This document shows, in pieces, positions 4,874 to 61,824 of a stretch of 64,000 bases of DNA. The translations under genes were made by a program, and so were the position numbers. Every line of letters starts with the position of its first letter. The stretch's first letter is position 1. The notes beneath the pieces are model-generated. The model searched no databases and had not been told where the DNA came from. It saw only the letters and a program-made list of their open reading frames with translations. This stretch comes from a virus. Lineage: Duplodnaviria; Caudoviricetes. The stretch lies in the IMG/VR virus record IMGVR_UViG_3300014205_000174; one strand, written 5' to 3'.

Positions 4874-4888
4874 GCAATAATCGTGCCG
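4874..4888 (-). promoter_or_regulatory. sigma54-type -24/-12 promoter upstream of the Fis-HTH gene
   Basis: CGGCACG-ATTA-TTGC. Confidence 0.75.
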
Positions 4889-5121
4889 GATTTTAACATT
4901 TTAACCAGTAGATTCAATATATTCAATGTCTTTTTTAGGAATTGAGTCTATGGTCTTGTAGCTCTTGCTGCGGGCTCGGTGCGTGTAGCAATAGAAACCG
5001 TTCTTGTCCTGCGCAACAGAGACGCCTTTAGCCTTTGCTGTCTTTGCCAGGAACTTCGGAGTTTTCGAAACTGTTTTATGTGCTTTGCTCATAAGCGTAT
5101 TATTGAATAGAAAAATGAAAC

Positions 5122-5757
5122 CTACTTTATAAGCCAGCCGTACTCCGCTTCCGCATTCAGAATATCACTAAACCCGGAGCGCTGTGTAACTATTGGCGTG
5201 GGTGCGCTGAAGCAATAGACATTGTGTATTTTTTGCAACTGCTCATAATAAACATCCAGCGGGCTTTGCGCGGGAGTTATTTTATCAATAATAGGCTGAT
5301 ACATTTGCGACCTGATTCCAATGCAGTGCGTGGAATAGGTGCTGTGTATCCGCAGCACCTTGTCATTAATGACATGCGGAGGCATAACACCTACAACATG
5401 CCCATTATGATTACCGGAGAAATAGACCATGTCCCAATTGGCAGGAAGCGCTTCAAAATAATCTGCAATTTTACTGAGCTCATGGCTGAATACAATATCG
5501 TCCTCCAGTATAAGGATATATTTATGATTTTTCGCCTTCGCGTCTTCCAGTATGCTGATATTTGTCTTCACAAGGCCCACAGCACCCAGAGAAAGCGTAT
5601 GCCCCTGGTTGGCAAGCGTATTGCCATCAACAGCAGAAACGCGCGTGACGATGATTTTATGTTTTAATACCTCTTCGTATACCTGCAACCACCGGTCTGT
5701 CCTCCGGTCAAGGTTAATCAGGTATATCTCATCGAATAATGAATTCAGTCTGTGCAT
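5122..5757 (-). CDS. Glycosyltransferase family 25
   Basis: IYLINLDRRTDR, RVSAVDG, LILEDD motifs. Confidence 0.85.
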   Translation of the reverse strand: MHRLNSLFDEIYLINLDRRTDRWLQVYEEVLKHKIIVTRVSAVDGNTLANQGHTLSLGAVGLVKTNISILEDAKAKNHKYILILEDDIVFSHELSKIADYFEALPANWDMVYFSGNHNGHVVGVMPPHVINDKVLRIHSTYSTHCIGIRSQMYQPIIDKITPAQSPLDVYYEQLQKIHNVYCFSAPTPIVTQRSGFSDILNAEAEYGWLIK

Positions 5758-5990
5758 GAGTAAACGGATTAAAAATTGTCGGCAGCATCGTGGCCCTGGG
5801 CAATACTTCCGGGATTATATGACTTTGAGCTATTCTTATGAACAGATACGACAGCTACGCTTACAATAGCTATCAATAAAACCACTACCAGCAAGTCCGA
5901 CCGTCCCTCTTTAGATAATTTAATGTCCATGATTCAAATTTTACATAAAGATACTGATTACGGATAAAAATAACATCAACTACATTGTTT

Positions 5991-6568
5991 CTATGGTACC
6001 GTCAATAAGCTTGTTGTGTAAGTCTGACCAAAACTAATGCTTTCAATGTCTCCTGCGTCCGCCCATGCGGTCAGTACCGCTTGGGCAAAACCGGGGAATT
6101 GCTTTGCAGAAGTTCTACTATGTAGCTGCTGGAATTTTTCTAAAGCAGCATTACGCGTGTAATCGTCGGCTATAGTCTCAATCCATTGTTTTATTGTTTT
6201 CATCGAATGATTTCTGGTCAAATGTAATTATTAGTTTGTTTCAAAACAAATAGTTTGCTTTAAAACAAACTAAAACTGCTGGAATAACACTATGATGCCT
6301 TTGTCATAGTCGCTTTTCATTTTAGACCAAAAATTCACACTCTCATTGGATTCCACCTGAGCCCATGTGAAAGCACGCAACAGGGACTGGTCAAAGCTGG
6401 CGACTTCTATTTTCGCCACACCGGCATTTCGGTCATCGAGCTTCTTAAGCTTCTCCAACGCGGCAGTGCGCGTATAATCATCGGCTATAAGCTCAATCCA
6501 TTCCTTTAGAGTTTTCATCGATAATGATTGATTGTCAAATGCAATTATTAGTTTGCTTTAAAACAAAC
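5991..6568 (-). repeat. Tandem duplication of a small gene with its upstream region (ORFs 5991-6221 and 6270-6518)
   Basis: MKTIKQWIETIADDYTRNAALEK vs MKTLKEWIELIADDYTRTAALEK; upstream sequences also align (tcaaatgYaattattagtttgYttYaaaacaaa). Confidence 0.8.
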
Positions 6569-6585
6569 GAAAGTAAATCAGGCGC

Positions 6586-8436
6586 TTAATAGACCTCGGG
6601 AAACTCCCGTACTGCAAATTCTTCGGGGAATTCGTTGATATCACTACCATGCCGCACTTTCATGCCCATTTTCTTACCAAGGTAAGTGCCCATCTGTTTT
6701 ATAAACACAGGCACGCCGGCTCTTTTACATTGCTGGATAATCTCGCCTATCCAATGACCCTCACAGGGCCGATATCCCCACTTGCCTATCTCGTTGCCGC
6801 TCTCCCCGCCAACAATAACCCAATGAATAAGCGTATAAATGCCTACATAGCCATGACCCCAGTCTTTTGGCGCGGTACCCAGCAGGCCCAAGTTAAGCGG
6901 GCTTAATAATGGCTCACAACTCAGGAAGCGGACTTTCGCCGGTACCTGGCATAGTAATGGCACCCTTTCCTCTGCACGTTCCTGATTCTCCACACTGGTG
7001 CCAAGCCATACATTTTCCCAACCATCACCCCAGTCCGCCGGTAAGTGTTCTAGAATTCGCTCCGGATGCTTTGTGAGTATTTGAAAGATAAGATGAGGAC
7101 ACTTGCGGATAATGTCCCAGGCCTCATGCCTAAAGGAATCAATTTCCGGGTGAAAGAAATCGGTGAGTGACGATGTAAACACCAGTGGCCTGCCACCCCA
7201 TGCCTCAGACTTAGTGCCCTTGTACTTCAGGGGCATATTGAATGTCGCAGGAGCCGTTCTTTTCACAATGCGACCATCATACTTAAACCTGTCACCCTCA
7301 CGCATCATATAGCAATTGTGAACTATAAATCCATTAGCTACAAATGTTTTTGAAGAGGTCTGTATATCAATCAACTCAGTTTCCCCAATATATTTTATGC
7401 CGTAAATAATTTGGTGGTTGGTAGCGGTTCTTTGGCCAGTAACAATGCAGTTTCTTAATAATGCCGGAGTAACTGTTGTAAAAAAATTTACTTTTTCAAC
7501 CAACCCACCGTGAAGAGTAAACACATTGCTAGCATAGCTGTATTTAAACCCCAGTTTATCCAGGCTTTTTGATATATTATCAACTACTTCCTTATTTGCG
7601 ACTACACCCTGAGCAATTCTTAAGGCATTAGTTCTTAATTTTTCGCGTTTTTTGGATTTATACGTACTCATATTCCCCTCTGCGTCAAACATTCCGGAAA
7701 TATAGCCCCTATGCCAATCTATGTCGTCTGTTGGATTATTATAACATTCCAATATTTTACTCAAAACTGGCTGGCTGCGGCTCTCAACTTTATTTATTTT
7801 AGTTTGCCCCTCCTCCGCACTAAATTCCTTTATGTCAAGCACCATATTGAACAATACTTTACAATATAGTACCACCCTGTCAAGTATTACTGTATCACAC
7901 AAAGCAATACGCCAATAACACTGTGGCGATTCCTTCTTCCATACGCTACCCCAGTCCGGACTATATTTGAATGTGCCATCTCCGTCAGTGACGCCAGCGA
8001 TATACCCTTTCATAAAAGTCTCAGTTATTGAATTCCCCTCGTATACATTCAATACATTAAGCTTCGTTTTTGAAACTTTGAGCAGGCTTAACGTCTTCCA
8101 TGGATTTCTTATTCCCAGAGAAAGGAATGGGTGGTCTTCGCTACACACAATTGTTCTGCCATTAGCTATACTTATTTCGAAAGCTGGCTTTACCACGCGA
8201 GATATCGCTTCAACGGTTGCGATTTCAAATTCTCTATATTGATTCGAAGCGTATTCCTGCACGGAAAAAACCTTGTCCCCTACTTGCAGCTCTGACATTT
8301 TTTTCCTTGTATAGTCCGCCATCAATATTATACTATCAGGGTGCAAGCAATTTTTACACCCTTCACTTTTGGGCGTACATCCCCTTGCAAGGTTATAAGT
8401 GATGTCTGTCCACGGTATGTTGGTTCTTGTTCCCAT
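6586..8436 (-). CDS. DUF5131 (phage Gp37/Gp68-like, radical-SAM-related) protein containing an intein
   Basis: TNIPWTDITYN..RGC....EGCKN/CY, SLTDFFH, FQILTKHPER, NVWLGTSVENQ, RFLSCEPLL, WVIVGGESG, VPVFIKQMG. Confidence 0.88.
   Translation of the reverse strand: MGTRTNIPWTDITYNLARGCTPKSEGCKNCLHPDSIILMADYTRKKMSELQVGDKVFSVQEYASNQYREFEIATVEAISRVVKPAFEISIANGRTIVCSEDHPFLSLGIRNPWKTLSLLKVSKTKLNVLNVYEGNSITETFMKGYIAGVTDGDGTFKYSPDWGSVWKKESPQCYWRIALCDTVILDRVVLYCKVLFNMVLDIKEFSAEEGQTKINKVESRSQPVLSKILECYNNPTDDIDWHRGYISGMFDAEGNMSTYKSKKREKLRTNALRIAQGVVANKEVVDNISKSLDKLGFKYSYASNVFTLHGGLVEKVNFFTTVTPALLRNCIVTGQRTATNHQIIYGIKYIGETELIDIQTSSKTFVANGFIVHNCYMMREGDRFKYDGRIVKRTAPATFNMPLKYKGTKSEAWGGRPLVFTSSLTDFFHPEIDSFRHEAWDIIRKCPHLIFQILTKHPERILEHLPADWGDGWENVWLGTSVENQERAEERVPLLCQVPAKVRFLSCEPLLSPLNLGLLGTAPKDWGHGYVGIYTLIHWVIVGGESGNEIGKWGYRPCEGHWIGEIIQQCKRAGVPVFIKQMGTYLGKKMGMKVRHGSDINEFPEEFAVREFPEVY
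7315..8349 (-). mobile_element. Intein (345 aa) with LAGLIDADG homing endonuclease
   Basis: Starts CLHPDSIILMAD, block B CSEDHPF, two motifs GYIAGVTDGDG and GYISGMFDAEG, ends TFVANGFIVHN followed by Cys. Confidence 0.92.
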
Positions 8437-11246: not shown

Positions 11247-11543
11247 TTACGCGGCTATTGATAATGTCTCTTCAGGTAATAACTTCTGTAAATTATCCAA
11301 GTCCTTTTTATACGCCTCATCACAGCTCAGATATCCGGTCACAACATTCACGCCATGCTGTATGGTAGCCGTATCCATTTTAAAACGCTTGGCAATTACC
11401 GGGAAAGAATAATATTCTTCCTTGCAATGGCGCAGCAGATACCAGATAAACTGCCTGCACTTAATATATGGCGCGGCCCTGTTCCTCTGGAATGGATTTA
11501 CACCGAAGTAACCACTAACTGTCTGAATTATAACTGAAATCAT
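11247..11543 (-). CDS. DnaA C-terminal-like HTH protein
   Basis: RQFIWYLLR...SFPVIAKRFKMDTATIQHGV resembles DnaA domain IV. Confidence 0.7.
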   Translation of the reverse strand: MISVIIQTVSGYFGVNPFQRNRAAPYIKCRQFIWYLLRHCKEEYYSFPVIAKRFKMDTATIQHGVNVVTGYLSCDEAYKKDLDNLQKLLPEETLSIAA

Positions 11544-11558: not shown

Positions 11559-11573
11559 GCAACAATCGTGCCA
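11559..11573 (-). promoter_or_regulatory. sigma54-type promoter upstream of the DnaA-C-like gene
   Basis: TGGCACG-ATTG-TTGC. Confidence 0.8.
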
Positions 11574-13977: not shown

Positions 13978-14012
13978 CAAACAGGTCGCGCTTTGTAGTG
14001 CGGCCTGTTTTG
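13978..14012. terminator. Intrinsic terminator-like hairpin (possibly bidirectional)
   Basis: aaacaggtcgcgct-ttgt-agtgcggcctgtttt. Confidence 0.6.
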
Positions 14013-14122
14013 TTTTGCCTATTACCAGCATCTACCGCAAATATCCTGCCAAATTACATTCCGGTAGTGCCTCAGTTTGAATGTTAATGTTTTTTAACAA
14101 ATAGGAGTAGTAACTTTGTTGC

Positions 14123-14257
14123 ATGGCAAAGAAAGCACGTCCAGCACGTCCTAAAGATACAAATCAACTGGCAAAACGCATAGCTGATATAGCTACTGGC
14201 GAAATTACCGAACAAAAGATTCCAGCCCCAAAGCCAGCAAAGAAAAAGGCAAGCTGA
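14123..14257 (+). CDS. Small basic protein often seen with IS1-like elements (44 aa, not in ORF track)
   Basis: MAKKARPARPKDTNQLAKRIADIATGE..., preceded by a TAACTTTG promoter-like motif. Confidence 0.65.
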   Translation: MAKKARPARPKDTNQLAKRIADIATGEITEQKIPAPKPAKKKAS

Positions 14258-14271
14258 TTTAATCCAGTTGA

Positions 14272-14574
14272 TTACTTAATGCGCCTACCCTGTTCGTCAT
14301 ATACTATTACAGGGGCAGAAATCTTTTCTCCTTTCACATTAAAAATGTATAGAGAGGCTGGTTGCGCGCCAATCATATAAACAGGAACCATGCCTTTATG
14401 CGTAAAATATTCGTAAGCACTTAGGATTTCCTCTTTGCTATAGTTACAATACGCTGTAAATATAAACCCTTCGCTATTATGCCTGCCAGTCTCAGTAAGC
14501 CCAATGCGCCAGTCGCTATATGGCTCCGTAGCCTTTTCGAGAATTCTATCTATCAATAGATTTTCATGTTTCAT
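14272..14574 (-). CDS. Hypothetical cargo protein
   Basis: ORF; likely start ATG at 14574 (MKHENLL) just after the structured leader. Confidence 0.55.
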   Translation of the reverse strand: MKHENLLIDRILEKATEPYSDWRIGLTETGRHNSEGFIFTAYCNYSKEEILSAYEYFTHKGMVPVYMIGAQPASLYIFNVKGEKISAPVIVYDEQGRRIK

Positions 14575-14590
14575 TTGTTTGTGTTTATGA

Positions 14591-14750
14591 TGAGCAAAAA
14601 AATAGCGTAACCGAAATTCAGTTGCTCGTTCAAGGCTTACCACAGCCCGCTCAATACAACGAATACAGTTACGCCATTTTAGGGCGCATCATATCCATAG
14701 ATTGTATTGAGCTTGCCGATTTAAACTGTGGTAATTCTGAACGGGCAACT
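14591..14750 (-). ncRNA. Long-hairpin structured leader RNA (copy 1)
   Basis: Nested stems agttgctcgttca/tgaacgggcaact, ttaccacag/ctgtggtaa, gctcaatacaa/ttgtattgagc, then ATTTCGGTTACGCTATTTTTTTGCTCA; same architecture at 60151-60295. Confidence 0.7.
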
Positions 14751-14899
14751 ACTTCTATAATACTGAAAATCTTCCTTTTTATCTATCCATGCAGTTAGTT
14801 TTGGTAAATGATTTTGTTAGCTTTGAAGCAAACAACTTATTACAAATGTAATTACTTTCATTATAAATAGTCCATTGGTGCGAAAAAAATAAAGCCTGC

Positions 14900-15616
14900 A
14901 TGAATAACAAAGAACGAATACTAAATGACTACGAAATACTGGGGGTATTCTATGTTAAAAAGGAGTTGTATAGAGCATACGTGAAGTATTACAATGAAAT
15001 TGATGCCCTGCTGCTTTATGATAAGCCTATACCAGCCGCATTACTCAAACGCTTCATCGCATTAATCCATAAAGAGAACTGGATACAGTCTAAGCATATT
15101 CAAAAGCTACTGAAAGGTAAAAGCGTATATACCAAGAAAGTAATAGACTACTTTTCAAAGCCTGAAAATGAAGAGTATTTATTTGAGGGCGAATCAACAG
15201 AAAAAGTCATGCTGTTTGATATACTTTCCGAAACCACTACCGAGCAAATACAACACGTGCCGTATTCATTTAAGGCAATGATTGATACCTGCATCCATGC
15301 TTACTTCACAATTGGGCAGGTGATACAAATGGATAAAAATGATATTGTAGTGTTTTTCTTTAACGACATTCAGGAATATACGCAACGACACTTTACCGAA
15401 GAGCAGCTACGTCAATACAAGCCATTCAGAATGAAAGTAATTGCAGCGTATCTCACTATGAGTATTGGGATGAAATTATGGGAGCCTGGTACTGTTATTC
15501 CAATAATGAATAAAAAAGGCAAGTACGAAAACAAGAGCATTCATACCCACTTCCGGAACAAAGATTTGGAGAATGTCACAAAAAATGCGCTGAGAGCTAA
15601 AAAGAGAAAAGCCTGA
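14900..15616 (+). CDS. Hypothetical cargo protein
   Basis: 238-aa ORF inside the transposon. Confidence 0.6.
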   Translation: MNNKERILNDYEILGVFYVKKELYRAYVKYYNEIDALLLYDKPIPAALLKRFIALIHKENWIQSKHIQKLLKGKSVYTKKVIDYFSKPENEEYLFEGESTEKVMLFDILSETTTEQIQHVPYSFKAMIDTCIHAYFTIGQVIQMDKNDIVVFFFNDIQEYTQRHFTEEQLRQYKPFRMKVIAAYLTMSIGMKLWEPGTVIPIMNKKGKYENKSIHTHFRNKDLENVTKNALRAKKRKA

Positions 15617-15704
15617 GTTTTCTCCCAGACTTTTCTCTTATACTGTGGCTTGACCCCAGTTCAAAATTATAAAATCCGACCCTAAAGTCAAAATACTATT
15701 TTTC

Positions 15705-15743
15705 GACCTTAGGTTCACTTTTTCAAAAAGTGAACCTAAGGTC
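15705..15743. repeat. Perfect 39-bp palindrome with related flanking half-sites
   Basis: GACCTTAGGTTCACTTTTT-C-AAAAAGTGAACCTAAGGTC; related motifs near 15651, 15678 and 15761. Confidence 0.85.
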
Positions 15744-15969
15744 AGTTTTTGTATTTCCCATCCTAAGGTCAAACCCATAAAAACCGATTTCTTTTTAATG
15801 ATTATTTGTGAATAGCCGGGCTATACTTTTGCTGCATGGCTGATTGGAGATAGTGGCAACATACTTTACTTGACCCTCAAAAAAAAACATTAAAAAATGA
15901 AAATAGATACCTCATAGCCCGAAAACAAAAAACCACCTGCTGTAACAAGTGGTTTTCCCGATTTCTTAT

Positions 15970-16041
15970 GCGCACGTAGTTTAATGGATAGAACTCGGGC
16001 TTCGGAGGCCGGCAGTTTGGGTTCGATTCCCAACGGGCGTA
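15970..16041 (+). tRNA. tRNA-Arg(TCG)-like gene, possibly degenerate
   Basis: GCGCACG-TA-GTTT-AATGGATA-GAAC...CTTCGGA...TTGGG-TTCGATT-CCCAA-CGGGCGT-A; perfect T-arm, one acceptor mismatch, imperfect anticodon stem, no encoded CCA. Confidence 0.6.
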
Positions 16042-16152
16042 CTATGTCACAAATGTAGGAAGTTGTATTTATGTGACCAAATAAAAATCATTGTTCATAA
16101 TTTCCAAAATAACTGGAAATATTTTTACTATTTCCAATAAAATGCACAAATC

Positions 16153-16167
16153 TGGCACGCAATTTGA
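16153..16167 (+). promoter_or_regulatory. sigma54-type promoter upstream of the transposase
   Basis: TGGCACG-CAAT-TTGA. Confidence 0.65.
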
Positions 16168-16197
16168 AATATATTGTTCACATACACGCACTAAGAA

Positions 16198-17082
16198 ATG
16201 AACAGGTTAAGCATTGCAGACAGGACTAAGATAGTTAGATTGTTGGTTGAGGGTAATTCTCTCCGTTCCTGCTCCCGGATAATGGACGTATCCATAAACA
16301 CAGTAACCAAGTTACTGGAAAAGGTAGGTGCCGCCTGCCTGAAGTTCCACCACGAGACCGTTATAAACGTGCCTGCAAAGCGGGTTGAATGTGATGAGAT
16401 TTGGTCGTTTGTCTACGCCAAAGAGAAAAACGTACCGTATTGCACTAAGCACGATGACACCAAAGTTGGCGATGCATGGACATTCGTAGGAATGGACGCT
16501 GATACCAAACTGGTTGTTTCCTGGCTTGTAGGTTGCAGGGATGCTATATCCGCAAATGATTTTATGCTGGAAGTATCAGCGAGGCTGCGCAACAGGGTGC
16601 AGCTTACTACCGATGGCTTTAAGCCTTACCTGAGAGCAGTAGAAACTGCATTTGATGATGAAATAGACTTTGCCCAGCTAATCAAGATTTACGGAGCCCC
16701 GGAAGGTAATGGTACGGAGAAAAGGTATAGTCCGGCAAAGTGTACAGGAATCGAAACTAAGCGGGTGTCTGGCGACCCAGACCCAGCATTCATATCTACC
16801 AGCTACATAGAGCGTCAAAACCTCACTATGCGTATGCAAATGCGTCGCTTTACGCGTTTGACCAATGGCTTCTCAAAGAAGATGGAAAACCATTGCCACG
16901 CTATAGCGCTGCACTTTGTTTACTGCAACTTTGTAAGAAGGCATACAACCCTGCGCGTAACACCAGCTATGGCAGCAGGATTAACAGACCGCTTTATGAA
17001 GCTTGAGGATATTGTATGCATGGCTTATGCTGATGAAATAGCACAGGAAGAAAAAATCAGAGCCAGATATAGGAGGGCGTAA
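16198..17082 (+). CDS. IS1-family DDE transposase
   Basis: N-terminal HTH (EGNSLRSCSRIMDVSINTV), VECDEIWSFV, LTTDG, TSYIERQNLTMR...RFTRLTNGFSKK, TPAMAAG. Confidence 0.9.
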   Translation: MNRLSIADRTKIVRLLVEGNSLRSCSRIMDVSINTVTKLLEKVGAACLKFHHETVINVPAKRVECDEIWSFVYAKEKNVPYCTKHDDTKVGDAWTFVGMDADTKLVVSWLVGCRDAISANDFMLEVSARLRNRVQLTTDGFKPYLRAVETAFDDEIDFAQLIKIYGAPEGNGTEKRYSPAKCTGIETKRVSGDPDPAFISTSYIERQNLTMRMQMRRFTRLTNGFSKKMENHCHAIALHFVYCNFVRRHTTLRVTPAMAAGLTDRFMKLEDIVCMAYADEIAQEEKIRARYRRA

Positions 17083-17114
17083 CGAAAGTATAAAATCCTA
17101 TTGTAGGACTACAT

Positions 17115-17639
17115 TCATTTTATGGATTCTAAGTAAGTTGCTGATACTGCTAATTGCGTAGCAAAATCAATATTTCTGTCGCCATGCTGATACATGTGCT
17201 TTAGCATTTCCATCTCAGTAACTCCTACTTTACTACGATGTTTCATTGCAATTAAGACATCTGAGCAAATTAATGTATTCTTATTGTTTATAACAATCTT
17301 GTACTGGTTCATCACTTCGACAAGTAATGGCTTTACCACTTCAATATCCGGCATCCCTTCAAAAGCATAGTGAATTGCTTCGTATGCTTCATCAGTATTA
17401 CCAGTCAGGCTATGGTGCAACTGAAAATCTTGCATTTCTTCATCTGTTGGCATTACGTAGTGTGTAGTATCTACATTCCTTTTCTCAACGATTACGCTAT
17501 CGTCATGCTCCAGACCCTCGCTATTTATCCATCGGTCTATATTCCTGTTAACTAGCATCCCTAATGCAATCCCGATTAAAACCGCTGAAAGAAGAGAAAT
17601 TTTTTTATGCCGAATAATCCACGTGTTTATTTTGTTCAT
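17115..17639 (-). CDS. Hypothetical membrane-anchored cargo protein
   Basis: N-terminal hydrophobic helix ISLLSAVLIGIALGMLV. Confidence 0.55.
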   Translation of the reverse strand: MNKINTWIIRHKKISLLSAVLIGIALGMLVNRNIDRWINSEGLEHDDSVIVEKRNVDTTHYVMPTDEEMQDFQLHHSLTGNTDEAYEAIHYAFEGMPDIEVVKPLLVEVMNQYKIVINNKNTLICSDVLIAMKHRSKVGVTEMEMLKHMYQHGDRNIDFATQLAVSATYLESIK

Positions 17640-18015
17640 TATGTAAAAGTATTATACCTTTCGGTAAAATTGTCAAAACAGAAAAATATGGAAGTTCTTT
17701 TACAGCAGTATCCGTACCCATCTAATAATTCCGACCAAACGTACTATGACTTTATAGGCAGAATAATAGAAATCAATTCAGAATCAATTCAGAAGTCGGA
17801 CGTAAAACTTTTACCTAAATTAGATATATATAAACTAGAGGTCAAGCTCTATTTAATTGGAGACAACATCACAGAAGAAATAAAAGAGGCTTACTTCAAT
17901 AAAATCAAAGATTGGGTTTTGTGAGTACCGCTCTGCATAATTGCAATATGCACTTTGTTAAAAAACATTAACATTCAAACTGAGACACTACCTACATTCC
18001 TGTTTATTTTATTTT

Positions 18016-18030
18016 TGGCACGGGGTTTGA
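18016..18030 (+). promoter_or_regulatory. sigma54-type promoter
   Basis: TGGCACG-GGGT-TTGA. Confidence 0.7.
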
Positions 18031-18483: not shown

Positions 18484-18498
18484 TGGCACGGGAATTGC
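18484..18498 (+). promoter_or_regulatory. sigma54-type promoter
   Basis: TGGCACG-GGAA-TTGC. Confidence 0.85.
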
Positions 18499-20963: not shown

Positions 20964-20978
20964 TGGCACGTAAATTGC
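20964..20978 (+). promoter_or_regulatory. sigma54-type promoter
   Basis: TGGCACG-TAAA-TTGC. Confidence 0.85.
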
Positions 20979-22117: not shown

Positions 22118-22140
22118 GTTTCTTTTCACTTGTATTAGTA

Positions 22141-22169
22141 AAAAGCCCGCCCATCCGGCGGGCTTTTTT
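22141..22169 (+). terminator. Intrinsic terminator
   Basis: aaaagcccgcc-catcc-ggcgggctttttt. Confidence 0.8.
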
Positions 22170-22174
22170 ATTTT

Positions 22175-22189
22175 TGGCACGCCGTTTGC
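22175..22189 (+). promoter_or_regulatory. sigma54-type promoter directly after a terminator
   Basis: TGGCACG-CCGT-TTGC. Confidence 0.85.
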
Positions 22190-24128: not shown

Positions 24129-24143
24129 TGGCACGGGATTTGC
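24129..24143 (+). promoter_or_regulatory. sigma54-type promoter heading the gene run that ends in the cas12f-like gene
   Basis: TGGCACG-GGAT-TTGC. Confidence 0.85.
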
Positions 24144-45867: not shown

Positions 45868-46737
45868 ATTTTGCCGCAGCAAAAGGTGCAGCGAAGTGCG
45901 TAGCAACATGCGCAACTGGTTTCAATTCAATACACAGCACGAATAAATATGGCACGCATTTTGCTGTCATACACTTTGATTCTCCATTTTTCACCTTATG
46001 AATTTCAAAAGCAACACACCGAGGGGCCACCCAGGGTAATCTTTTTGATTACTTTTTTACAAATCAACTACATACACTATATTTTATTACCAATATAACT
46101 AAAAGACATTCCCGGAATGGCTCTTTTTTCGCTCAAATTCTGTTTGATTAATTCTTTGCTCAGCATTTTGCCGCAGCAAAATTTACAGCAAGTGTGCAAT
46201 CAAATAGTTCACCAACCTCATTTTTTACCACAATCACACATTTATGTCGACCAGAAAGAAGGAATACTACATGAAGTTCAATGTAAAGGACTTCATGACC
46301 GACCAAAAGCTCCAGGAGTGCGGCCCAGCGGCCAATGGAGTCTACATTCACATACTTTGCGTGCTCTTTAATTCTGAAGAAAGGGGCAGATATTTATTCA
46401 AAACGGACGAAATAAAGCAATTTGCAGACATTTTGCCGCAGCAAAATGCGCAGCAAATAAATCAGCAAACGGAACAGCAAATAAAAAACATTTGCTGTGT
46501 TTTTGCCGGACGACTTGTTAAACATTTGCCGTTTTCAGAAAGAGAGGTTGAGTCTGGTTTAGTGGAGCTTATATTAAATAATGTATTATACTTTGAAGGC
46601 TTTTATCTATGTCAAAAAAGGATGATTCATGACGCAAGTGTAAGTAAATCAAGGAGTAACGCTGGCCGTAAAGGTGCAATGGTCACAAACAGCAGAAAAA
46701 ACGGGGCAAATCCGGGTGTAATTTTGCCGCAGCAAAA
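45868..46737 (+). repeat. Four iteron-like repeats (candidate replication origin)
   Basis: ATTTTGCCGCAGCAAAA at 45868, 46165, 46430 and 46721, upstream of and inside the initiator-like gene. Confidence 0.75.
45950..45964 (+). promoter_or_regulatory. sigma54-type promoter upstream of the replication initiator
   Basis: TGGCACG-CATT-TTGC. Confidence 0.8.
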
Positions 46738-48409: not shown

Positions 48410-48424
48410 CGGCACGCAAATTGA
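48410..48424 (+). promoter_or_regulatory. sigma54-type promoter
   Basis: CGGCACG-CAAA-TTGA. Confidence 0.6.
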
Positions 48425-52664: not shown

Positions 52665-53681
52665 TTAATTACGGAAGGTGTAGGTATTATGTCCTCTGCT
52701 TATTGCGACTTTGGAAAATTGTTTGCTTATGCAACCTGTTCGCTTAGACATTTTGAATTGAGATTCACCTACGCAAAACATGCTGTTGCCTTTTAGCGAA
52801 TTCTGCACAGCCTCATGCAAATATACTGTGTTGTTATCAATGTGTAGCTCGTCTAAGTCTATACTATAGTAGTTGTTTGCGTCTATGCTATACCAACCTC
52901 TACTAACCCATGCACTTTCGCCATTATCAAAGTAAGCAAGGGCTACTGATATTTTTCTGCCGGTATTATTTATCAATTTTAAGTAATGGGTATTATGATT
53001 GTCATTGTTGGAATTGTCGTTGTCGCTTGACGAACTTGGTATATCGTTACCAGCATATAACTTAGATGAAGCGATGCCATTTGCGCCATGCGAAGATGAA
53101 TTGCTCCCACCTGAATAAGTATTATGGTCGGCTTCTCCTTCAACTATAGCAACAATATCTACAGTCACAATAATCCTTGTGGTTAATGATGGGTTTCGTA
53201 GCCCTAAATATAAAAATCTATCCCCTCTTCGGACTTGATAATTTCTTTTGCAACCTAATGAGTTGAGGCAAGTATAATCAGTAAATGTACTCCATTGTCC
53301 ATCCTGTTTATTAAGGAACATGTTTAGGTTCGAGCCGTCTTGGGGTAATAGAAATGCATCTATCTTAGCGTTACTGGGAGGAATGTCAATAAAATCAATT
53401 GCTCTTGATAAAACAAAACTTCCAGTCAGGGTAGCAGTTAACTTAGCTGCGAGTTTTATATCAGGGGCGGCATCATAATCTACAGATGATTTTACAACAT
53501 AGACTATTGATACAGCACCTTCTGGGATACTAACAGGTAGATAAGTCCGCGTAGTACCACCAAGCCGCCCTCCAGAGTTTAATTCAAAAGACTGTTTTGC
53601 TGCAACTTGTACAACTTTGTAGTTTTGTGAATAAATATTGCTGCCACATAAAAAAGCGATAAAGAAAAAGACTGTTCTCAT
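52665..53681 (-). CDS. Secreted protein with C-terminal DUF1036-like domain
   Basis: Signal peptide; NNTGRKISVALAY...WVSRGWYSI. Confidence 0.6.
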   Translation of the reverse strand: MRTVFFFIAFLCGSNIYSQNYKVVQVAAKQSFELNSGGRLGGTTRTYLPVSIPEGAVSIVYVVKSSVDYDAAPDIKLAAKLTATLTGSFVLSRAIDFIDIPPSNAKIDAFLLPQDGSNLNMFLNKQDGQWSTFTDYTCLNSLGCKRNYQVRRGDRFLYLGLRNPSLTTRIIVTVDIVAIVEGEADHNTYSGGSNSSSHGANGIASSKLYAGNDIPSSSSDNDNSNNDNHNTHYLKLINNTGRKISVALAYFDNGESAWVSRGWYSIDANNYYSIDLDELHIDNNTVYLHEAVQNSLKGNSMFCVGESQFKMSKRTGCISKQFSKVAISRGHNTYTFRN

Positions 53682-54421
53682 ATTTTAATCTTTCTTCAAA
53701 ACTAATATAAGAGACCGGAAATTCTATATCGGTCAAATGAATTACATAAAATTTGTTGACAGCCGTACACGCAAAGCCGGTAGTTCATTTCCAGAGGCAC
53801 GAATAGCACCGCTCAAAATATCAACGTTAGCATTTGCTGTGTCATACTTCGATTTATATTGCAACATAAAGTAGGTAACAGTAATCAGGCCCAACAGGCC
53901 TGTTATTTCCAGTGCAATGCGCATAAAAAAATGTTTAAGTGTAAGAAATAAGTTATTTTTGTCTTGTTCTGGGAGTGGAATTTTAGAACAAGACATTACT
54001 GGGTAGTTAGCGCTACCCATTTTTCATACACCAAATATAACACATTCCTTTTGGTAAATACATTTTGCAAACTACGGCAAGTCGGACGTATACCTGTTCA
54101 AAGAAAGTTATCCATAAAAATCTGGACTGAATTTCAAGAATTGAATTGCTGACCGGTTGAAACTCACTGTTGGGGCAAGGATTATTAATGTATTTTGTCC
54201 AATATCTTACGAGCCCTTTCCGTCATATCCTCTAATGCCTTTGGTTCATCATAAAACGCTTTTTGAGTATTTTTTATTTGCCGTTGGTATAGGTCTTCGA
54301 TTCGCTGAAAAATAATGGCCTGATTTGCTATAACTTGTCTCAGCATATCTTTTATTTCTTTGTCCATAATGGTTTGTTTTCTTTAAAGGTAATAAAAAGG
54401 GTAACCCCAGTTTGGGTTACT

Positions 54422-55489
54422 TCATCTTTTTGCTGCTTTAATTACCCTTCTGATTCCGTTGTTCTGTCTTTTCGATACCTGTGCCTTATTGTATTCTGTG
54501 TTCTTTTTTTGTACCCACCCGTTACCCGGAAGCCCATCTTCTCGAGATGTATAACTGATATAGCACCATTTATTCTGGGAGTCTAGAACAACAACGTTTA
54601 GATAATCTTTAATTGAATCAATAATCAAAGAACCAGTTTTAGGCTTGAGATACACAGAGCAATCATTTACTATCATTCTTACCTCGTTCTTTCCCTCTAA
54701 TAGTTTATGTATGGCTGCAAGTTCCTGATGTATTGGCACCAATTCCTGGTGTACTGACGTTAATACCTGATGTATCGGAACTATATCATTTTTCGTCACA
54801 GCATTTGAATCGGGTGGGATTACATACGGCAGAACACATTGAGCAACGGATACAACAAGGCTCAATAAAGTGACCACAAATATTATCTTTTCTCTTTTCT
54901 CTTTATTAGCACCTGACACACTTTTATACAGGTCAGCGCATATTTTCAATATATGTGTTTTGAAGAATTCAAAATCTTCCATTGTAATACCTGAGCCTCC
55001 GCCGGTAAGTCTTTCACTCATCTCCGCTACATCAGCCGTCACCTCTGCAAATTCATCCAATGATTCCCAGTCTTCGATTTTCGCATAGTATCTGGCAAGG
55101 GAGCTGGAAATGCCTGCCATCGCTGTTTGTAGAGTAGATATCTGGACAGCGGAGACCCGGTGACTATAGAAATTCTCTCGGATGCCATTTAGCGTAGACA
55201 TACCCCGTATTGAATTATACAGAGCGGGGTTAATGCTGATTGCTTTACTTGCTACCGACATGCGTTCGAAATGCTGCCCCATTGATATTACAGCGGTCAT
55301 TGCGCTATCGGGTATTCTAGGAACATTGAACCTGTTTGCTAAATTAGCAAAGGCCGAGAACGAGGGTATTTGCGTTTGAAATCTTTCAGGCAAGCGGGAC
55401 ATAGAATCAAAACGAGAAAATGTTTGCATCATCTCGTTTATCTTATTAAACCTGCCAAAAAAGTTATTCAGTCCATTGAAATCATGCAT
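54422..55489 (-). CDS. Membrane protein with C-terminal SH3b-like domain
   Basis: TM helix IIFVVTLLSLVVSVA; VYLKP...VVVL....KWCYISY...GWVQKK. Confidence 0.55.
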   Translation of the reverse strand: MHDFNGLNNFFGRFNKINEMMQTFSRFDSMSRLPERFQTQIPSFSAFANLANRFNVPRIPDSAMTAVISMGQHFERMSVASKAISINPALYNSIRGMSTLNGIRENFYSHRVSAVQISTLQTAMAGISSSLARYYAKIEDWESLDEFAEVTADVAEMSERLTGGGSGITMEDFEFFKTHILKICADLYKSVSGANKEKREKIIFVVTLLSLVVSVAQCVLPYVIPPDSNAVTKNDIVPIHQVLTSVHQELVPIHQELAAIHKLLEGKNEVRMIVNDCSVYLKPKTGSLIIDSIKDYLNVVVLDSQNKWCYISYTSREDGLPGNGWVQKKNTEYNKAQVSKRQNNGIRRVIKAAKR

Positions 55490-55572
55490 AACGTACGGTT
55501 GTACGTCAATTGTAACAAAAAAAGTTTACGCTTTCATGTTTCTTCGAAAATTTATAGAAACTTTGAGTATCC

Positions 55573-56229
55573 TCACGGAATGTAAGACTTAGCAATATCT
55601 TGCACTTTGGTGCGGACTGAAGACATAACGGCATTTTTCCAACCCTTGCTCTCATATCTTATTTCATTTCCAGTCGCATCATCTTGAATAACTAGCTCGC
55701 AATGGCTTACGTTAGAATACGTTGGCCTGTGGCGAACTTTGACACGAAAATAGACAGTCCTAGCCGGTTTCGAAGCAACTACTATAGAATCGGTATAATC
55801 ATCTATTAGTCCTATAGGGATAAAAAAATGTTGCTTTTCGTAATCCCGTTTATAGTCACCCCTTTTAGGACGCAGACCTCGTTTTTTGCCGTACCAATTG
55901 CGTATGAATTCTGGTTTTCTTTTTGAAATGAACTCCACTTGCGTATCGTGCGGCTTGCTATATGGCACTTTGTTCGTGGAATAGCCTGGAAGTTCTTTCA
56001 ACCCTATCGCTAGCGGACTAATCAAACCATCGAATTGAGTAAGTGGAATATTGGCCTTAACCGCCCTACATAGATATTCAGTGGCCTTTAGCCTGCTAAG
56101 TAGTCGGGAATAGGATTTCGGAACTAAGTATAGAGGATATCTCTTCTTGCAACGATTTCTGAAACGGGTAATACGAAGAATAGGCTGGACGGCGAGCTTG
56201 ATTCTTATGAATGATGGTATATATTTCAT
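55573..56229 (-). CDS. Hypothetical protein, possibly ART/RES-like fold
   Basis: YLCR, YSTN and VRHRPTYSNVSHCEL pattern; weak. Confidence 0.3.
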   Translation of the reverse strand: MKYIPSFIRIKLAVQPILRITRFRNRCKKRYPLYLVPKSYSRLLSRLKATEYLCRAVKANIPLTQFDGLISPLAIGLKELPGYSTNKVPYSKPHDTQVEFISKRKPEFIRNWYGKKRGLRPKRGDYKRDYEKQHFFIPIGLIDDYTDSIVVASKPARTVYFRVKVRHRPTYSNVSHCELVIQDDATGNEIRYESKGWKNAVMSSVRTKVQDIAKSYIP

Positions 56230-57042
56230 TTACACTTCCAAAGTAGGACTGTAATTTAGTGTCATTTTCGTAAATATGCAGCACTGCCTCAACATCATTT
56301 TCATCATTTTTATCGAAAGTATAAAAAAGTTCCAATTTATACTGATTCCCATTATCAAACTGAAGTGTTAAATACAGACTAGAAGAGTCGGTTAATGATG
56401 CCATAAAGTTCTTGAATTTGTACATTCTGAACTCATCGACCGTCCTACTTATGTAATGACGAATGTGCTTGATATGCTGTTGGTCTTCGTCAGCAATCAT
56501 GTTGAACTGCTTATTGATAGTGGAATATGCAATTCCTTTAAGAAGATTGTTTTGCTTAACTCCTTGTTATTAGATAACGTAATTGTTATCGTTTGCTCTC
56601 CCGATTCTATTTTTTTCACGGCCTCTTTATATTTTTCAGCATCATCTTTATTAGACAAAATTTGTCTTACTTCCTCACTCATAACATCAAGGTCGTTACT
56701 AAAAAATGAATTAATAACACTCCTCAATGCACCCGATATCTGTGTCAGAACAACTTTCATAATAAGTATGGTAAATAAACTATGCCATCAAGCGGCTGGT
56801 CAAATATAATATCTTTCTACCCACATTTCCAATAGCTCAAACGTTGTAACTGGCCAAAAATTGCAAAATGAGTTGAAATTTAACCGTTTTTTTACCTCAA
56901 GATGCTTAATGGTCGCACTAATTATTTACCATGGTGGTATCTGGAAAGCTCCATGACAGTACCCGAGCGGTACTGTCATGGAACTTGTGTTTTGCAGTTT
57001 TACTATATACCATTACGTTTGCATTGTACCCAAACTTTTGCA

Positions 57043-57783
57043 ATGAGATACTATATGTTTATTGATGAAAGCGGAGAGGCGAACATTACAAATCCAGACC
57101 CGCGATTTAATATATTTGTTCTGTGCGGGGTTATTTTTCGAGAAGACTGTTACCATACATTCAATCAACGATTCAAGGATATTAAGAACAATATATTTGG
57201 CAAAGAGGATATAGTATTTCATTCAGTTGAAATGAGGCCAAAGAAAGGAGTATTCAAAATTTTCTTGGATAAAGGGATTCTGGATAATTTTTATTTAGAG
57301 ATTGACGATATACTTAAAAATTGCGATTACCATATTATTTCCTGCGTTGTAAATAAAGAAAAGTACAAAATGGTCTATCCGGAAAAAAACCACGCTTATG
57401 AAGACGCCCTAACGTTTATATGCGAACGTGGGATTCATCTGATGGGAAGCAAAAACCGGCAAAACGTTTTGCATTTTTGCTTAGAAAAACGAGGAAAAAG
57501 CAAGGATGCGCAAATAAAGAAATACTACACTCGGTTTCTAAAATATGGGACTCAATATGTCAGCACCTACGACTTCCAATTGTGTCACCCTCATTTGCAC
57601 TTTCGAGGCAAAGACGAGAACATAAACGGGTTGCAACTTGCCGACTTAGTTGCATACCCTATTGCCCGAAAAATTCTTTCCCCCGAAAAGCCACAGCTAA
57701 CATTTAATATTTTTGAAGAGAAGTTATATTGCGGGAGCAATACCCGCTCCTATATTGGATGGGGTATAAAGCACTTCCCCTAA
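57043..57783 (+). CDS. DUF3800-family protein
   Basis: YMFIDESG, FHSVE, GLQLADLVAYPI; likely start ATG 57043. Confidence 0.85.
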   Translation: MRYYMFIDESGEANITNPDPRFNIFVLCGVIFREDCYHTFNQRFKDIKNNIFGKEDIVFHSVEMRPKKGVFKIFLDKGILDNFYLEIDDILKNCDYHIISCVVNKEKYKMVYPEKNHAYEDALTFICERGIHLMGSKNRQNVLHFCLEKRGKSKDAQIKKYYTRFLKYGTQYVSTYDFQLCHPHLHFRGKDENINGLQLADLVAYPIARKILSPEKPQLTFNIFEEKLYCGSNTRSYIGWGIKHFP

Positions 57784-57846
57784 ACGGTGAAACCTCAAAT
57801 TAATGAGGCTTCCCTACGGCAAGGCATCCGCCTGACACGTATTCAG
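57780..57846 (-). ncRNA. Candidate DUF3800-associated antisense small RNA
   Basis: Minus-strand TATCTTTG promoter motif near 57846-57853, followed by a short structured sequence ending in hairpin gaagcctca-ttaatt-tgaggtttc, convergent with the DUF3800 stop. Confidence 0.45.
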
Positions 57847-57955
57847 CAAAGATAGACGCATTTTCTTAAAATTCGATTTGTTTAACAAAATACCGTTATT
57901 TAACGGTATTTTGCTAAACTTCTATTGTATAGCTTTGCCTGTAAACTAAACACTT

Positions 57956-59122
57956 ATGAAGAAGTATTTTCCAATATTGGTATCAAAACTCGGTGAAATA
58001 AAAGCCTTAGAATGTTTGACGCAAGCAGCGAAGGAAGAAATATCTCCCGTTATCGAGTTAACCCCAGATATGTTTTTGGATGGATGGACTGAGAAGAAGA
58101 AAAACGCTGAAGCTGCTGCCGATGAAAAAAGAATGAAGAATAACCTAGACCCTATTGACAGAACTGCACGTAAACAGAAAGGTTATGAAAACATATTACT
58201 TACAAGCCTGAAAAAACATTGGATATTTCCTGATAACCAGATTCTGTTAGATTTTACCCATTGCGGCCTCACACTGCCTCGATATATATCTGAATTTCTA
58301 GCAGTCCTTAACTCAAGTAACATTAATGTAGTTCCGGTTGTATCTGCGACAAATTCACAAGATATCATCGATTTAATTTTAAAATTCGTGACTGAAAATG
58401 ACAGGCCTATCTGCCTACGTTTTGATTCGAATAATTTCGATAAAATATCTGAGCAAACCATTTTTGATAATCTCGTCACATCATATAATGTCAATAGAAA
58501 CCGTGTTATGATTTTGTTGGATGGCGGATATATTGAGGGGCACACTTACGAAATGTTTAAAAAATACACCTTAGAAGCCCTAAGCAGTCTGCCGAATACT
58601 AACGACTGGCGGGAGATTATTGTTAGTTTTGGTTCATTCCCTAAAGACCTATCAGATAGTAGCCTAGTCGCAAGAAAGGAACCACATCTACTTAAAAGAC
58701 ACGAGTGGGTAATATGGCAGGACATTAAGAAAGCAAATGCATGCGGCGGAAGGGTTAGATACAGCGACTACGGAATTAAGCATCCCGCATATGAAGAAAT
58801 AGGGTTTCCAGGCACTGCAAGCATAAAGTACAGTAGCGAAAATAATTTTGTCATTTATAAAGGCAAAAAATCGGGTGAAACTAAGTTAGGTAATGCTCAA
58901 TATATTATGCATGCGAAGGAACTAGTAACATCCGAATATTATACTAATGAGCACTTTTGCTGGGGGGACGAAAATATTATGGAATACTCAAAGAAAAGCC
59001 CAGAACCAACGCCAGCTAAAAAACCGGAAGGAAAACCCAAAAGGCCGGAATCTGGAGCCGCCAAAGAATGGATAGCATTTGGTCAAAATCACCATTTAAC
59101 TTTAATGAACAGCTTACTTTAA
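57956..59122 (+). CDS. Beta-family (T4 beta/Sce7725-like) protein
   Basis: YFPIL..K.GE..AL..L, GSFP.DL, R.EW..W, YSDYGIKHP, CWGD..I, W.....NHHLT. Confidence 0.8.
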   Translation: MKKYFPILVSKLGEIKALECLTQAAKEEISPVIELTPDMFLDGWTEKKKNAEAAADEKRMKNNLDPIDRTARKQKGYENILLTSLKKHWIFPDNQILLDFTHCGLTLPRYISEFLAVLNSSNINVVPVVSATNSQDIIDLILKFVTENDRPICLRFDSNNFDKISEQTIFDNLVTSYNVNRNRVMILLDGGYIEGHTYEMFKKYTLEALSSLPNTNDWREIIVSFGSFPKDLSDSSLVARKEPHLLKRHEWVIWQDIKKANACGGRVRYSDYGIKHPAYEEIGFPGTASIKYSSENNFVIYKGKKSGETKLGNAQYIMHAKELVTSEYYTNEHFCWGDENIMEYSKKSPEPTPAKKPEGKPKRPESGAAKEWIAFGQNHHLTLMNSLL

Positions 59123-59134
59123 GGCAGATTAAGG

Positions 59135-59677
59135 CTATCTTCTTTTCAAAATTTCACGTACAGATGCGGAGAGTGCGTCAATGTCTAAACTTTCGGATAA
59201 TAGCTCACACATATTCCAAACTCTATCGGATTTATAGAACGGAATACCGTGCTTATGAAGCACGGATATAAGCTCTTCTTTGCATAAAAGTTTGGCTATA
59301 AAAAATCCGTTTTTCGAAGGGTTTATGCCTCCTTCCTTTTCAACTTTATATTCCACCTCATCAGGACAATCGGAGCAAATTGCAACAGATACCCAGTCTG
59401 GAGTTATTGTTTTTATTTTTTCAATGTATCTCTTTTCCGTAACTACGGTCAAATAGTCAAAAACATTTGAGTATGCCAATAGCTGGTTTGGTAGGCGATT
59501 TAGAGTGTCAACTGCACTCTTAATCTCATATCCATGAAATGCACCATTAATAACAGCCATATCAATCCTAGCCCCCGCAACGGGCAATTTCATTTCCTCT
59601 ACAATCTTATCAATGTTATTAGTGTACTGCTGCAATTCTGTGCGTTTCAGAATCTCCCTAATGGCTGGGTCTTTCAT
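59135..59677 (-). CDS. Sce7726-family protein (PD-(D/E)xK-like)
   Basis: D..IR, EE.....ARIDMAVING.FHGYEIKS..DTL.RL..Q...YS.VFD. Confidence 0.85.
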   Translation of the reverse strand: MKDPAIREILKRTELQQYTNNIDKIVEEMKLPVAGARIDMAVINGAFHGYEIKSAVDTLNRLPNQLLAYSNVFDYLTVVTEKRYIEKIKTITPDWVSVAICSDCPDEVEYKVEKEGGINPSKNGFFIAKLLCKEELISVLHKHGIPFYKSDRVWNMCELLSESLDIDALSASVREILKRR

Positions 59678-60616: not shown

Positions 60617-60806
60617 CCCTAATTAGTTCGTTTTTTATTTACGTGTTTGGCTCAGGGGACTTTTGTTCGATAATTTCGCCTGTGGCTATATTCCTATGCA
60701 TTTTGCCAGGCGCATATTCTCTAAACAAGCAAGTGGACTTCTGGCATAATAGTTGTGCATTTCTTATTGCAATTGCTGTTTTTTAAAATCTACGTAACTT
60801 TACAAC

Positions 60807-60950
60807 ATGTCAACTGACAATAAAAAGAGAAAACCAAGGGTAAGTAAATACGACATGACGCTTAAGCTCGATTGCTCATTTGAGGAAGCAATTAAGAAAA
60901 CTCTTGTGGCTGCCGATAAGAAGATAAAGGAAAAGCAGGTCAAAAAGTAA
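60807..60950 (+). CDS. Small basic protein next to the right TIR (47 aa, not in ORF track)
   Basis: MSTDNKKRKPRVSKYDMTLKLDCSFEEAIKKTLVAADKK... Confidence 0.5.
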   Translation: MSTDNKKRKPRVSKYDMTLKLDCSFEEAIKKTLVAADKKIKEKQVKK

Positions 60951-61031
60951 AAATCACCCACATTTTGCTAGCCATAAACTGCATGTTGTCACATTATGAA
61001 TTATTTTCAGCCAAACACGTCAATAGTTGCC

Positions 61032-61795
61032 CCAAATTTGATGGTGTATTGGTACGAGGGCTCCGGCCTACCGAAATACGCCAGATAGCGGGCCGCACAG
61101 GGCGGTTTGGTGTTGCCGGTGCCGAAAATTGCTTTGTGTCCGCCAGCAGCAGCAAGATGCTCAAATATATTACCGACCAATATCACCAGCCGGACGAGGT
61201 GAAGAAAGCCTATGTGGGTCTTGATTTTGAAATGTTTTCCGGTTTTCCGGAAAGCATGTCGGTTCTGGAGCGCGTGCTGATGTTTGAAAAGGTGGATTTC
61301 ATTTTAGATAAACTGAAAGATATAGTGCGCAAGGAAAATGTTGGTAGGTATAAGGAAATTGCGGAAATGGTTAACCGGAAGCAGTTTTGCCTACACACCA
61401 AATGGACTTTGCTGACAGCGCCGGTGAAGGAAAATAATAAAAGCTACTTTTCCGCTACGGTAGATGCCTATGCGCGCAATGGCATTATAAGGCCCCCGGT
61501 AACAGAGATTCTTTCCGAAATCCGGGAATATGAGGATAAGATATCGGAAATAGAGCTGTATTTAAATCTTAGTAGAGTTCTAAATCACGACAATGACGAG
61601 CGGGAATGGATTATGCAGGAAAAGGTTGTGCTGATAAGCCAATTGAGTCAAATGCTCCTGGATAAGAAATTGTCAGTCAAGAAGAAATGCAAAACCTGTA
61701 CGACCATGTTGGCGCTCACTTATCCATATCCTTACTGCGAACCCTGTTATATGAATAGCGTAAGGAATCATTTTGACGATGACGGGTGGTTTTAA
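61032..61795 (+). pseudogene. C-terminal fragment of a Suv3-like SF2 helicase
   Basis: KFDG...L.PTEIRQIAGRTGRFG (motif VI) begins right after the TIR; Walker A/B absent. Confidence 0.75.
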
Positions 61796-61809
61796 AGGGA
61801 CTATAAATT

Positions 61810-61824
61810 TGGCACGCTTATTGC
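61810..61824 (+). promoter_or_regulatory. sigma54-type promoter
   Basis: TGGCACG-CTTA-TTGC. Confidence 0.85.

Follow-up and report, generated by a model that had tools for sequence, protein, structure and literature searches.

Which transcription machinery reads the genes of a phage arm in which the same short motif recurs before one gene after another? This question is raised by a 64,000-nucleotide (nt) stretch of phage DNA (Duplodnaviria; Caudoviricetes; IMG/VR record IMGVR_UViG_3300014205_000174), here called the window, which is part of a larger phage genome. An original prediction made from the letters of the window listed 15 matches to YGGCACR-N4-TTGM and read them as a phage-wide programme of promoters dependent on sigma-54 (RpoN). 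Polymerase carrying sigma-54 cannot start by itself; it is held at the promoter until an activator, powered by ATP, opens the complex. Every sequence test that was run fits a promoter class heading gene blocks, whereas a search of the window turned up neither an rpoN gene nor an activator gene or enhancer. We put at roughly 70% the probability that the sites, 16 in all, are genuine -24/-12 promoters used by the host RNA polymerase with sigma-54, and that they form the main promoter class of this non-structural arm.

Identity of the motif

A pattern search reproduces the 15 matches exactly, with the same coordinates and strands, against 0.23 expected from 100 dinucleotide-preserving shuffles of the window (standard deviation, 0.47; maximum, 2); none of the shuffles contains three or more sites. 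When a weight matrix built from these sites and their flanks (8 nt upstream and 10 nt downstream) is run over the window, the 15 sites score between 21.6 and 36.6, and the next unrelated match scores 13.6. The additional site is a variant, TGGCAGG-N4-TTGC at 14037(-), which has matching flanks and a matrix score of 23.7.

The spacing of the two half-motifs is strict: YGGCAC-Nk-TTGM yields 15 matches at k = 5 and zero or one at each other k from 2 to 9. All 15 sites have GG at -24, the -12 element is GC in 12 and GA in 3, and the GG-to-GC spacing is exactly 10 base pairs (bp). The sigma-54 promoter consensus, compiled reportedly by Barrios et al. in 1999, is TGGCACG-N4-TTGC, and its established form extends to TGGCACG-N4-TTGCW. 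The 11 core positions of the phage motif agree with TGGCACG-N4-TTGC, and nine sites keep all 11. Core, spacing, position, and orientation all agree with the -24/-12 assignment made in the original prediction. The conserved block is wider than the core, spanning about 30 nt (AAAWTY, TGGCACG, N4 with an A/T-rich 3' side, TTGC, WNTAYA), and some sites share about 30 nt with one another (18484 with 30650; 22175, 24129, and 44947 as a group). Similarity between sites ends within this promoter-sized length, indicating that they are not copies of a longer repeat.

Position of the sites relative to genes

Genes were called crudely, by greedy choice of the longest open reading frame (ORF). ORFs of at least 45 amino acids (aa) make up 87% of the window, yet 13 of the 16 sites fall in none of them, and the other three only within over-extended or doubtful ORF calls. 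All 16 are intergenic and share the orientation of the next gene, and in 14 of them the start codon follows 3 to 44 nt after the motif end (Table 1), as had been claimed of gene boundaries, orientation, and start-codon proximity. The exceptions in distance are 14037(-) and 45950(+), the latter lying 152 to 280 nt from its start codon. Sites 4874, 11559, 18484, 24129, 29346, 30650, 38174, and 61810 stand 3 to 16 nt past the stop codon of the preceding co-directional gene, and sites 22175 and 44947 stand immediately behind strong intrinsic terminators.

TABLE 1 Sigma-54-type boxes of the window and their immediate surroundings
Feature	Coordinates	Strand	Context
Box CGGCACG-N4-TTGC	4874-4888	-	24 nt before TTG start of 95-aa ORF (4562-4849)
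Box	11559-11573	-	15 nt before ATG 11543; heads leftward block to ~4.9 kb
Variant box TGGCAGG-N4-TTGC	14037-14051	-	170 nt before ATG 13866; left half of divergent pair probably split by transposon
Box, TTGA at -12	16153-16167	+	30 nt before transposase ATG, inside transposon
Box	18016-18030	+	24 nt past transposon end; ATGs 3 and 12 nt downstream
Box	18484-18498	+	6 nt past preceding stop; 27 nt before ATG 18526
Box	20964-20978	+	Directly before DUF932-family gene (20987-22117)
Intrinsic terminator (12 pairs) abutting box	22140-22168 (terminator); 22175-22189 (box)	+	36 nt before ATG 22226
Box	24129-24143	+	7 nt past preceding stop; heads run 24172-27094 ending in dCas12f
Box TGGCACA	29346-29360	+	25 nt before ATG 29386
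Box, top matrix score	30650-30664	+	4 nt past preceding stop; 13 nt before ATG 30678
Box TGGCACA	38174-38188	+	3 nt past preceding stop; 44 nt before ATG 38233
Intrinsic terminator abutting box	44991-44969 (terminator); 44961-44947 (box)	-	24 nt before ATG 44922
Box	45950-45964	+	150-280 nt without long ORF, then 360-aa ORF at 46244
Box CGGCACG...TTGA	48410-48424	+	42 nt before ATG 48467
Box	61810-61824	+	14 nt past preceding stop; 30 nt before ATG 61855

Read as promoters, three sites in series would drive leftward transcription from 14.0 to about 0.5 kb, and eight would serve the rightward block from 18.0 to 39.3 kb. One site would serve the leftward block from 44.9 to 39.3 kb, two the region from 45.9 to 52.5 kb, and one the genes from 61.8 kb onward. 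Site 44947(-) is the sole box of this type for its block. Transcripts would be expected to start about 12 nt past the GC of the -12 element, and their leaders would then measure about 0 to 32 nt; with ATGs only 3 and 12 nt after site 18016, the leader there would be very short or absent.

The motif in related phages

No close relative was found by megablast against GenBank phages, four protein-seeded scans of IMG/VR returned nothing close to the window, and an IMG/VR profile scan recovered only distant phages with DUF932 genes, which show no enrichment of the motif. The closest DUF932 homologues are 52 to 61% identical; this phage lineage is poorly sampled. The promoter recurs in two lake-type metagenome contigs with DUF932 identities of 52 to 55%: L082 contains four sites within 4 kb and L083 two within 3 kb, one of which immediately precedes the DUF932 homologue, just as in the window. 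In five of these six sites the sequence is TGGCACG-N4-TTGCAATACA or close to it. Around the sites the DNA cannot otherwise be aligned, a contrast that points to selection on the motif itself. Three cultured Bacteroidota phages with a related methyltransferase have 0, 1, and 0 sites, suggesting that the motif is a trait of certain lineages and not of all phages of the phylum. A scan of IMG/VR with the extended motif of the relatives gave 10 single matches, about the number estimated for chance.

A transposon and the probable host

A 3.9-kb transposon with 39-nt terminal inverted repeats occupies positions 14063 to 17992, between sites 14037(-) and 18016(+), which probably formed a back-to-back promoter pair before the insertion. 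The element carries a tRNA-Pro(CGG) and three or four small ORFs, along with a DDE transposase that is IS1/IS240-like. It is 74 to 87% identical in nucleotide sequence to Flavipsychrobacter contigs L232 and L233, rising to 97% at the repeats; L232 ends inside the shared end segment of the transposon. A comparison with 185,579 species genomes placed the five nearest transposase homologues (68 to 78% identity) in Flavipsychrobacter or other Bacteroidetes assemblies.

Site 16153 lies inside this shared element and belongs to it rather than to the phage backbone. Of the 15 listed sites, the 14 on the backbone remain as a candidate phage programme, and this one is carried by a transposon common to bacterial genomes. 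The closest bacterial copies of the transposon have TGGCACGTAAATTGG at the position equivalent to site 16153, and two more distant chromosomal copies, on long contigs, have an apparent sigma-A-type promoter in place of the box.

Among phage proteins, the methyltransferase finds its best matches in cultured phages of Tenacibaculum, Leeuwenhoekiella, and Riemerella, and the family of nuclease-dead Cas12f (dCas12f) to which a protein of the window belongs is known from Bacteroidetes (PMC13472631). Taken together, the transposon relatives, the methyltransferase matches, and the dCas12f family make us confident, from sequence relationships, that the host belongs to the Bacteroidota, and moderately so that it may belong to the Chitinophagaceae. 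We are probably dealing with a phage of freshwater Bacteroidota. The transposon is in itself a useful host marker.

Sigma-54 in the probable host genus

Each of three genomes of Flavipsychrobacter, the genus of Chitinophagaceae to which the transposon points, contains two or three genes with a Sigma54_DBD domain and five or six strong PF00158 activator genes. A second sigma-54 gene adjoins a gene for an enhancer-binding protein in each of them (G001:C13:78467-79985, G002:C1:88797-90318, and G003:C6:224119-225607), and one genome has a third such pair (G002:C62:19241-20715) on a 21.6-kb contig of lower G+C content (39%). These adjoining pairs may represent a dedicated or mobile cassette. The 21.6-kb contig was considered as a phage contig and rejected, having no similarity to the window.

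In Flavipsychrobacter, -24/-12 boxes lie 74 to 85 nt before the ATG of groES (TGGCAC-N5-GTGA), grpE (TGGCAA-N5-TTGC), and dnaK (TGGCAT-N5-TTGA), which fits reports that chaperone genes in Bacteroidota are under sigma-54 control (PMC9723704, PMC12316311). The host boxes fall short of the phage ones in strength, with one to three core positions off the consensus as against nine perfect phage boxes, and have a CTGCCAWWAT-like element 20 to 45 nt upstream. The exact form TGGCACG-N4-TTGC occurs 9 times in the 64 kb of phage DNA and 4 to 7 times per host genome of 3.9 to 5.1 Mb, a roughly 100-fold difference in density. Some of the host copies are promoter-like and have phage-like flanks, for example, the one before a gene for a protein sorted by the type IX secretion system (T9SS).

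Search for a sigma factor, an activator, and an enhancer

Several results weigh against sigma-54 promoters here. The original prediction allowed for an RpoN encoded by the phage itself; a Pfam scan of about 66 ORFs of the window (all of those of at least 170 aa and most of at least 117 aa) detected no sigma-54 domain, no PF00158, and no sigma-70-family or AAA+ domain of any kind. The GAFTGA loop is absent from all six frames of the window, and a pattern scan of the called ORFs for Walker A gave one spurious match only, inside a GIY-YIG protein. No k-mer or palindrome is common to the 260 bp upstream of the 16 sites, where the only similarities are terminator stems and transposon ends. The CTGCCAWWAT-like element of the host chaperone genes has no match to its strict form in the window, and its loose form is not associated with the sites. 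Finally, the assignment of a host that possesses sigma-54 depends mainly on one shared transposon.

The palindrome GGCA-N7-TGCC is modestly enriched in the window (6 found against 1.28 expected, at 5611, 21983, 29117, 29246, 52037, and within site 38174 itself), and it occurs near two sites only, with two copies 100 to 230 bp upstream of 29346 and a third 190 bp before 22175. Since it is absent from the relatives L082 and L083, we treat it as a mere lead. A small protein with a Fis-type helix-turn-helix (HTH), the 95-aa ORF at 4562-4849, was considered as one part of a split activator and rejected (19 bits, below the cutoff; no relative in the PDB).

With sites 3 to 16 nt behind stop codons and no common upstream element, the activator probably works without a nearby enhancer. 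The spaces between genes are too small for enhancers, nothing upstream is common to the sites, and no activator gene was detected in the window; the activator therefore most likely either needs no nearby enhancer or is encoded by another part of the phage genome. It might work from solution or from distant or intragenic sites, or could be a phage factor encoded outside the window.

Other promoter classes

The most enriched 7-mers upstream of genes in the window are TGGCACG and TTGGCAC, and there is no second strong motif. Promoters of the sigma-70 type are no more frequent than chance predicts (counts of 56, 40, and 54, with 53, 46, and 58 expected). The Bacteroidota sigma-A -7 box, TAnnTTTG, is not enriched in the window overall (65 against 76 expected) and is 2.3-fold enriched between genes (19 against 8.2 expected). 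Well-placed -7 boxes precede six genes, at 53681(-), 54020(-), 57956(+), 39914(-), 29906, and 30307. The first three of these lie in a defence- or moron-like island (52665-59677; DUF1036 C-terminal domain, DUF3800, Beta_protein/phrog_9159) that has no sigma-54-type sites. The intergenic -7 boxes suggest a second, host-housekeeping promoter class, found mainly in the island region of 52.6 to 61.8 kb. The -7 box was also considered as the source of the conserved motif flank; it overlaps only 3 of the 15 sites and does not explain the motif.

Weighing of the explanations

On the preferred reading, the phage seems to run sigma-54-headed gene blocks by way of the host: sigma-54 polymerase would bind at the sites, and its complexes would be opened by an ATP-driven activator. 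A bolder proposition is that a large phage drives almost all of its non-structural programme from sigma-54 promoters of consensus strength that lack enhancers and are pressed up against the preceding stop codons. It dispenses with any enhancer protein bound to DNA, so that opening would fall to a phage-encoded or virion-delivered factor, to a host activator acting from solution, or to a mechanism outside the AAA+ family. We regard this as rather unlikely. If true, it would mean that the phage could go on transcribing its own genes while shutting down the main sigma factor of its host.

The motif could instead be the site of a transcription protein of the phage (a sigma-like factor, an RNA polymerase, or a DNA-binding activator) encoded outside the window, with a likeness to the sigma-54 consensus that is convergent or borrowed. 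The window has no sigma-54 or activator gene, the gene search covers these 64 kb while most of the genome lies outside them, and the conservation of AAAWTY upstream and WNTAYA downstream of the core would suit such a factor, as would the lineage-specific distribution of the motif, with three cultured Bacteroidota phages lacking it. A borrowed or convergent site would, however, have to equal the sigma-54 consensus at 11 core positions and in its 10-bp spacing. The same type of box is also found in the closest bacterial copies of the transposase, and full boxes of the phage type stand at host genes such as that of the T9SS-sorted protein. Moreover, the roughly 66 scanned ORFs include no sigma factor of any class. 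We consider a phage-encoded factor improbable.

Alternatively, the sites might bind sigma-54 polymerase and remain mostly silent, acting as docking sites, sponges, roadblocks, or insulators. The sigma-54 holoenzyme does make stable closed complexes without an activator, and both the lack of a detected enhancer and a density about 100-fold that of the host would fit such a role. Intragenic sigma-54 sites that do not fire are known in E. coli (PMC4591121), which we count in favor of silent docking. Decoys, however, could equally lie inside or antisense to genes, and no site does so; the consistent orientation toward the next gene (16 of 16), and the short distance to its start codon in 14 cases, are those of promoters. 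Two sites lie behind terminators, where a new transcript must begin, and no other promoter class is available for the blocks. We give silent docking a slim chance.

Very little speaks for RNA-guided recruitment of polymerase by the dCas12f of the phage together with an extracytoplasmic function (ECF) sigma factor, with the motif as part of the guide target. The window does encode a close homologue of a structurally solved nuclease-dead Cas12f, along with three guide cassettes, and members of this family direct RNA-guided transcription with an ECF sigma factor in Bacteroidetes (PMC13472631). The spacers of the guides match nothing elsewhere in the window, where only the scaffolds and repeats match each other, and no spacer-complementary target was found about 46 bp upstream of a start within the window. 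With four free positions, the motif falls short of the length of a 20-nt target, and the published system works without any promoter motif; in addition, no ECF sigma factor was found in the window. These points bring the explanation close to refutation. An origin of the sites by chance, or by copying of a repeat or mobile cassette as the roughly 30 nt common to some site pairs might suggest, is next to impossible given that no shuffle reaches three sites, that similarity ends at promoter length, and that placement and orientation are non-random.

Comparison with known systems

To our knowledge, none of the textbook strategies of phage transcription is a sigma-54-based programme. In the literature we searched, no phage was found to run a gene programme on sigma-54 promoters, though most subscription journals lay outside the search and absence is no proof. 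The sole published phage sigma-54 promoter found is that of Pseudomonas phage YuA, a single sigma-54-like promoter that was re-detected in later work (10.1101/2023.10.13.562163, citing Ceyssens et al. 2008). YuA thus likewise has a phage promoter dependent on host sigma-54, as is proposed here; it has, however, one such promoter among sigma-70-type and phage-specific ones, whereas in the window the class heads nearly every block of a 64-kb arm. Late transcription in T4 depends on gp55 and gp33, and the sliding clamp acts there as a mobile activator. By analogy only, it resembles our proposal in its compact promoter, the lack of a nearby enhancer, and an activator without a fixed DNA site; it differs in its sigma family and motif, and no link to a clamp loader is seen here. 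Phage proteins related to the sigma-54 system have been described: one, in Pectobacterium phage Q19, is weakly sigma-54-like (PMC7693777), and another, from a Mosigvirus, is similar to enhancer-binding proteins (10.64898/2026.10.06.757011).

The phage sites share with bacterial sigma-54 promoters such as glnAp2, pspA, and nifH the same 11 core positions, the GG-to-GC spacing, and a co-oriented position upstream of genes. Unlike them, the phage sites are packed about 100 times more densely than in the probable host, often directly behind stop codons (3 to 16 nt), with no upstream activator site detected and no activator gene nearby. The SM4 promoters of Bacteroidota, which serve chaperone, protein quality-control, and envelope genes (Flavobacterium psychrophilum, PMC9723704; survey, PMC12316311), involve the same phylum and the same sigma factor. 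The boxes of this kind in Flavipsychrobacter, however, are weaker and accompanied by the CTGCCAWWAT-like element, which the phage sites lack.

If the sites do act as sigma-54 promoters, most of the early and accessory genes of the window, including those of anti-defence type and dCas12f, would stand behind them, and the programme would be tied to an activator switch. Such dependence could give a tight off-state, could tie the timing of expression to a stress signal that infection sets off in the host, and could protect the phage from a shutdown of the main sigma factor of the host. The phage boxes may in addition serve as strong, compact sigma-54 parts for Bacteroidota genetics.

Genes behind the sites

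Judged from its gene content, the window is an arm of accessory, early, or host-takeover type, and no virion genes occur among its scanned ORFs. The protein types encoded behind the sites include DUF932, HAD_SAK_2, GIY-YIG endonuclease, dCMP deaminase, and glycosyltransferases, and they are joined by a C5 methylase, a DUF5131 protein with an intein, and many small proteins without known function. The run headed by site 30650 includes a gene for a protein like phosphoadenosine phosphosulfate (PAPS) reductase and one for a 514-aa DNA methyltransferase.

The run from 24129 does end, as predicted, in a nuclease-dead Cas12f, a 383-aa protein with a full-length match to PDB 9n9c (E value, 6.5e-81). 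The replication gene that had also been expected behind a site was not found in the window in any true form, where the nearest candidate is a 98-aa protein with an HTH like the DnaA C-terminal domain, encoded after 11559(-). This first gene behind site 11559 (11247-11543, minus strand) matches DnaA_C at 32.3 bits, just above the cutoff. The first gene behind site 4874 (4562-4849, minus strand) has a weak, sub-cutoff match to the Fis-type HTH_8 family. These two small HTH proteins are possible regulators of the programme.

The dCas12f gene itself occupies 25943-27094, and the guide cassettes lie at 27107-28100 and at 2295-1900 on the minus strand. Each cassette has a scaffold of about 105 nt, 94 to 95% identical to the others, followed by an array of ATTTGAAAGGTAGTTACAAC-type repeats. 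With the phage protein as the query, no dCas12f homologue was found in the three Flavipsychrobacter genomes. A 174-aa ORF at 1639-2163(-) overlaps the third guide array (repeats at 1903-2144) and matches no family; it is probably not a gene.

The DUF5131 protein (phage Gp37/Gp68 type; 616 aa, 6586-8436, minus strand) is interrupted by its intein, which contains a LAGLIDADG/HNH-like endonuclease region (matches to Intein_splicing, Hint, and LAGLIDADG_3). Following site 45950, positions 45965 to 46243 hold a 13-codon ORF and a small hairpin with six consecutive T residues after it (about 46035-46058). A small RNA was considered here and rejected, its predicted fold being no better than those of shuffled sequences (z = -0.89). 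In the 170-nt leader of site 14037(-), a strong 14-pair hairpin with a T-run on the plus strand lies at 13979-14010 and could be a bidirectional terminator or a leader structure.

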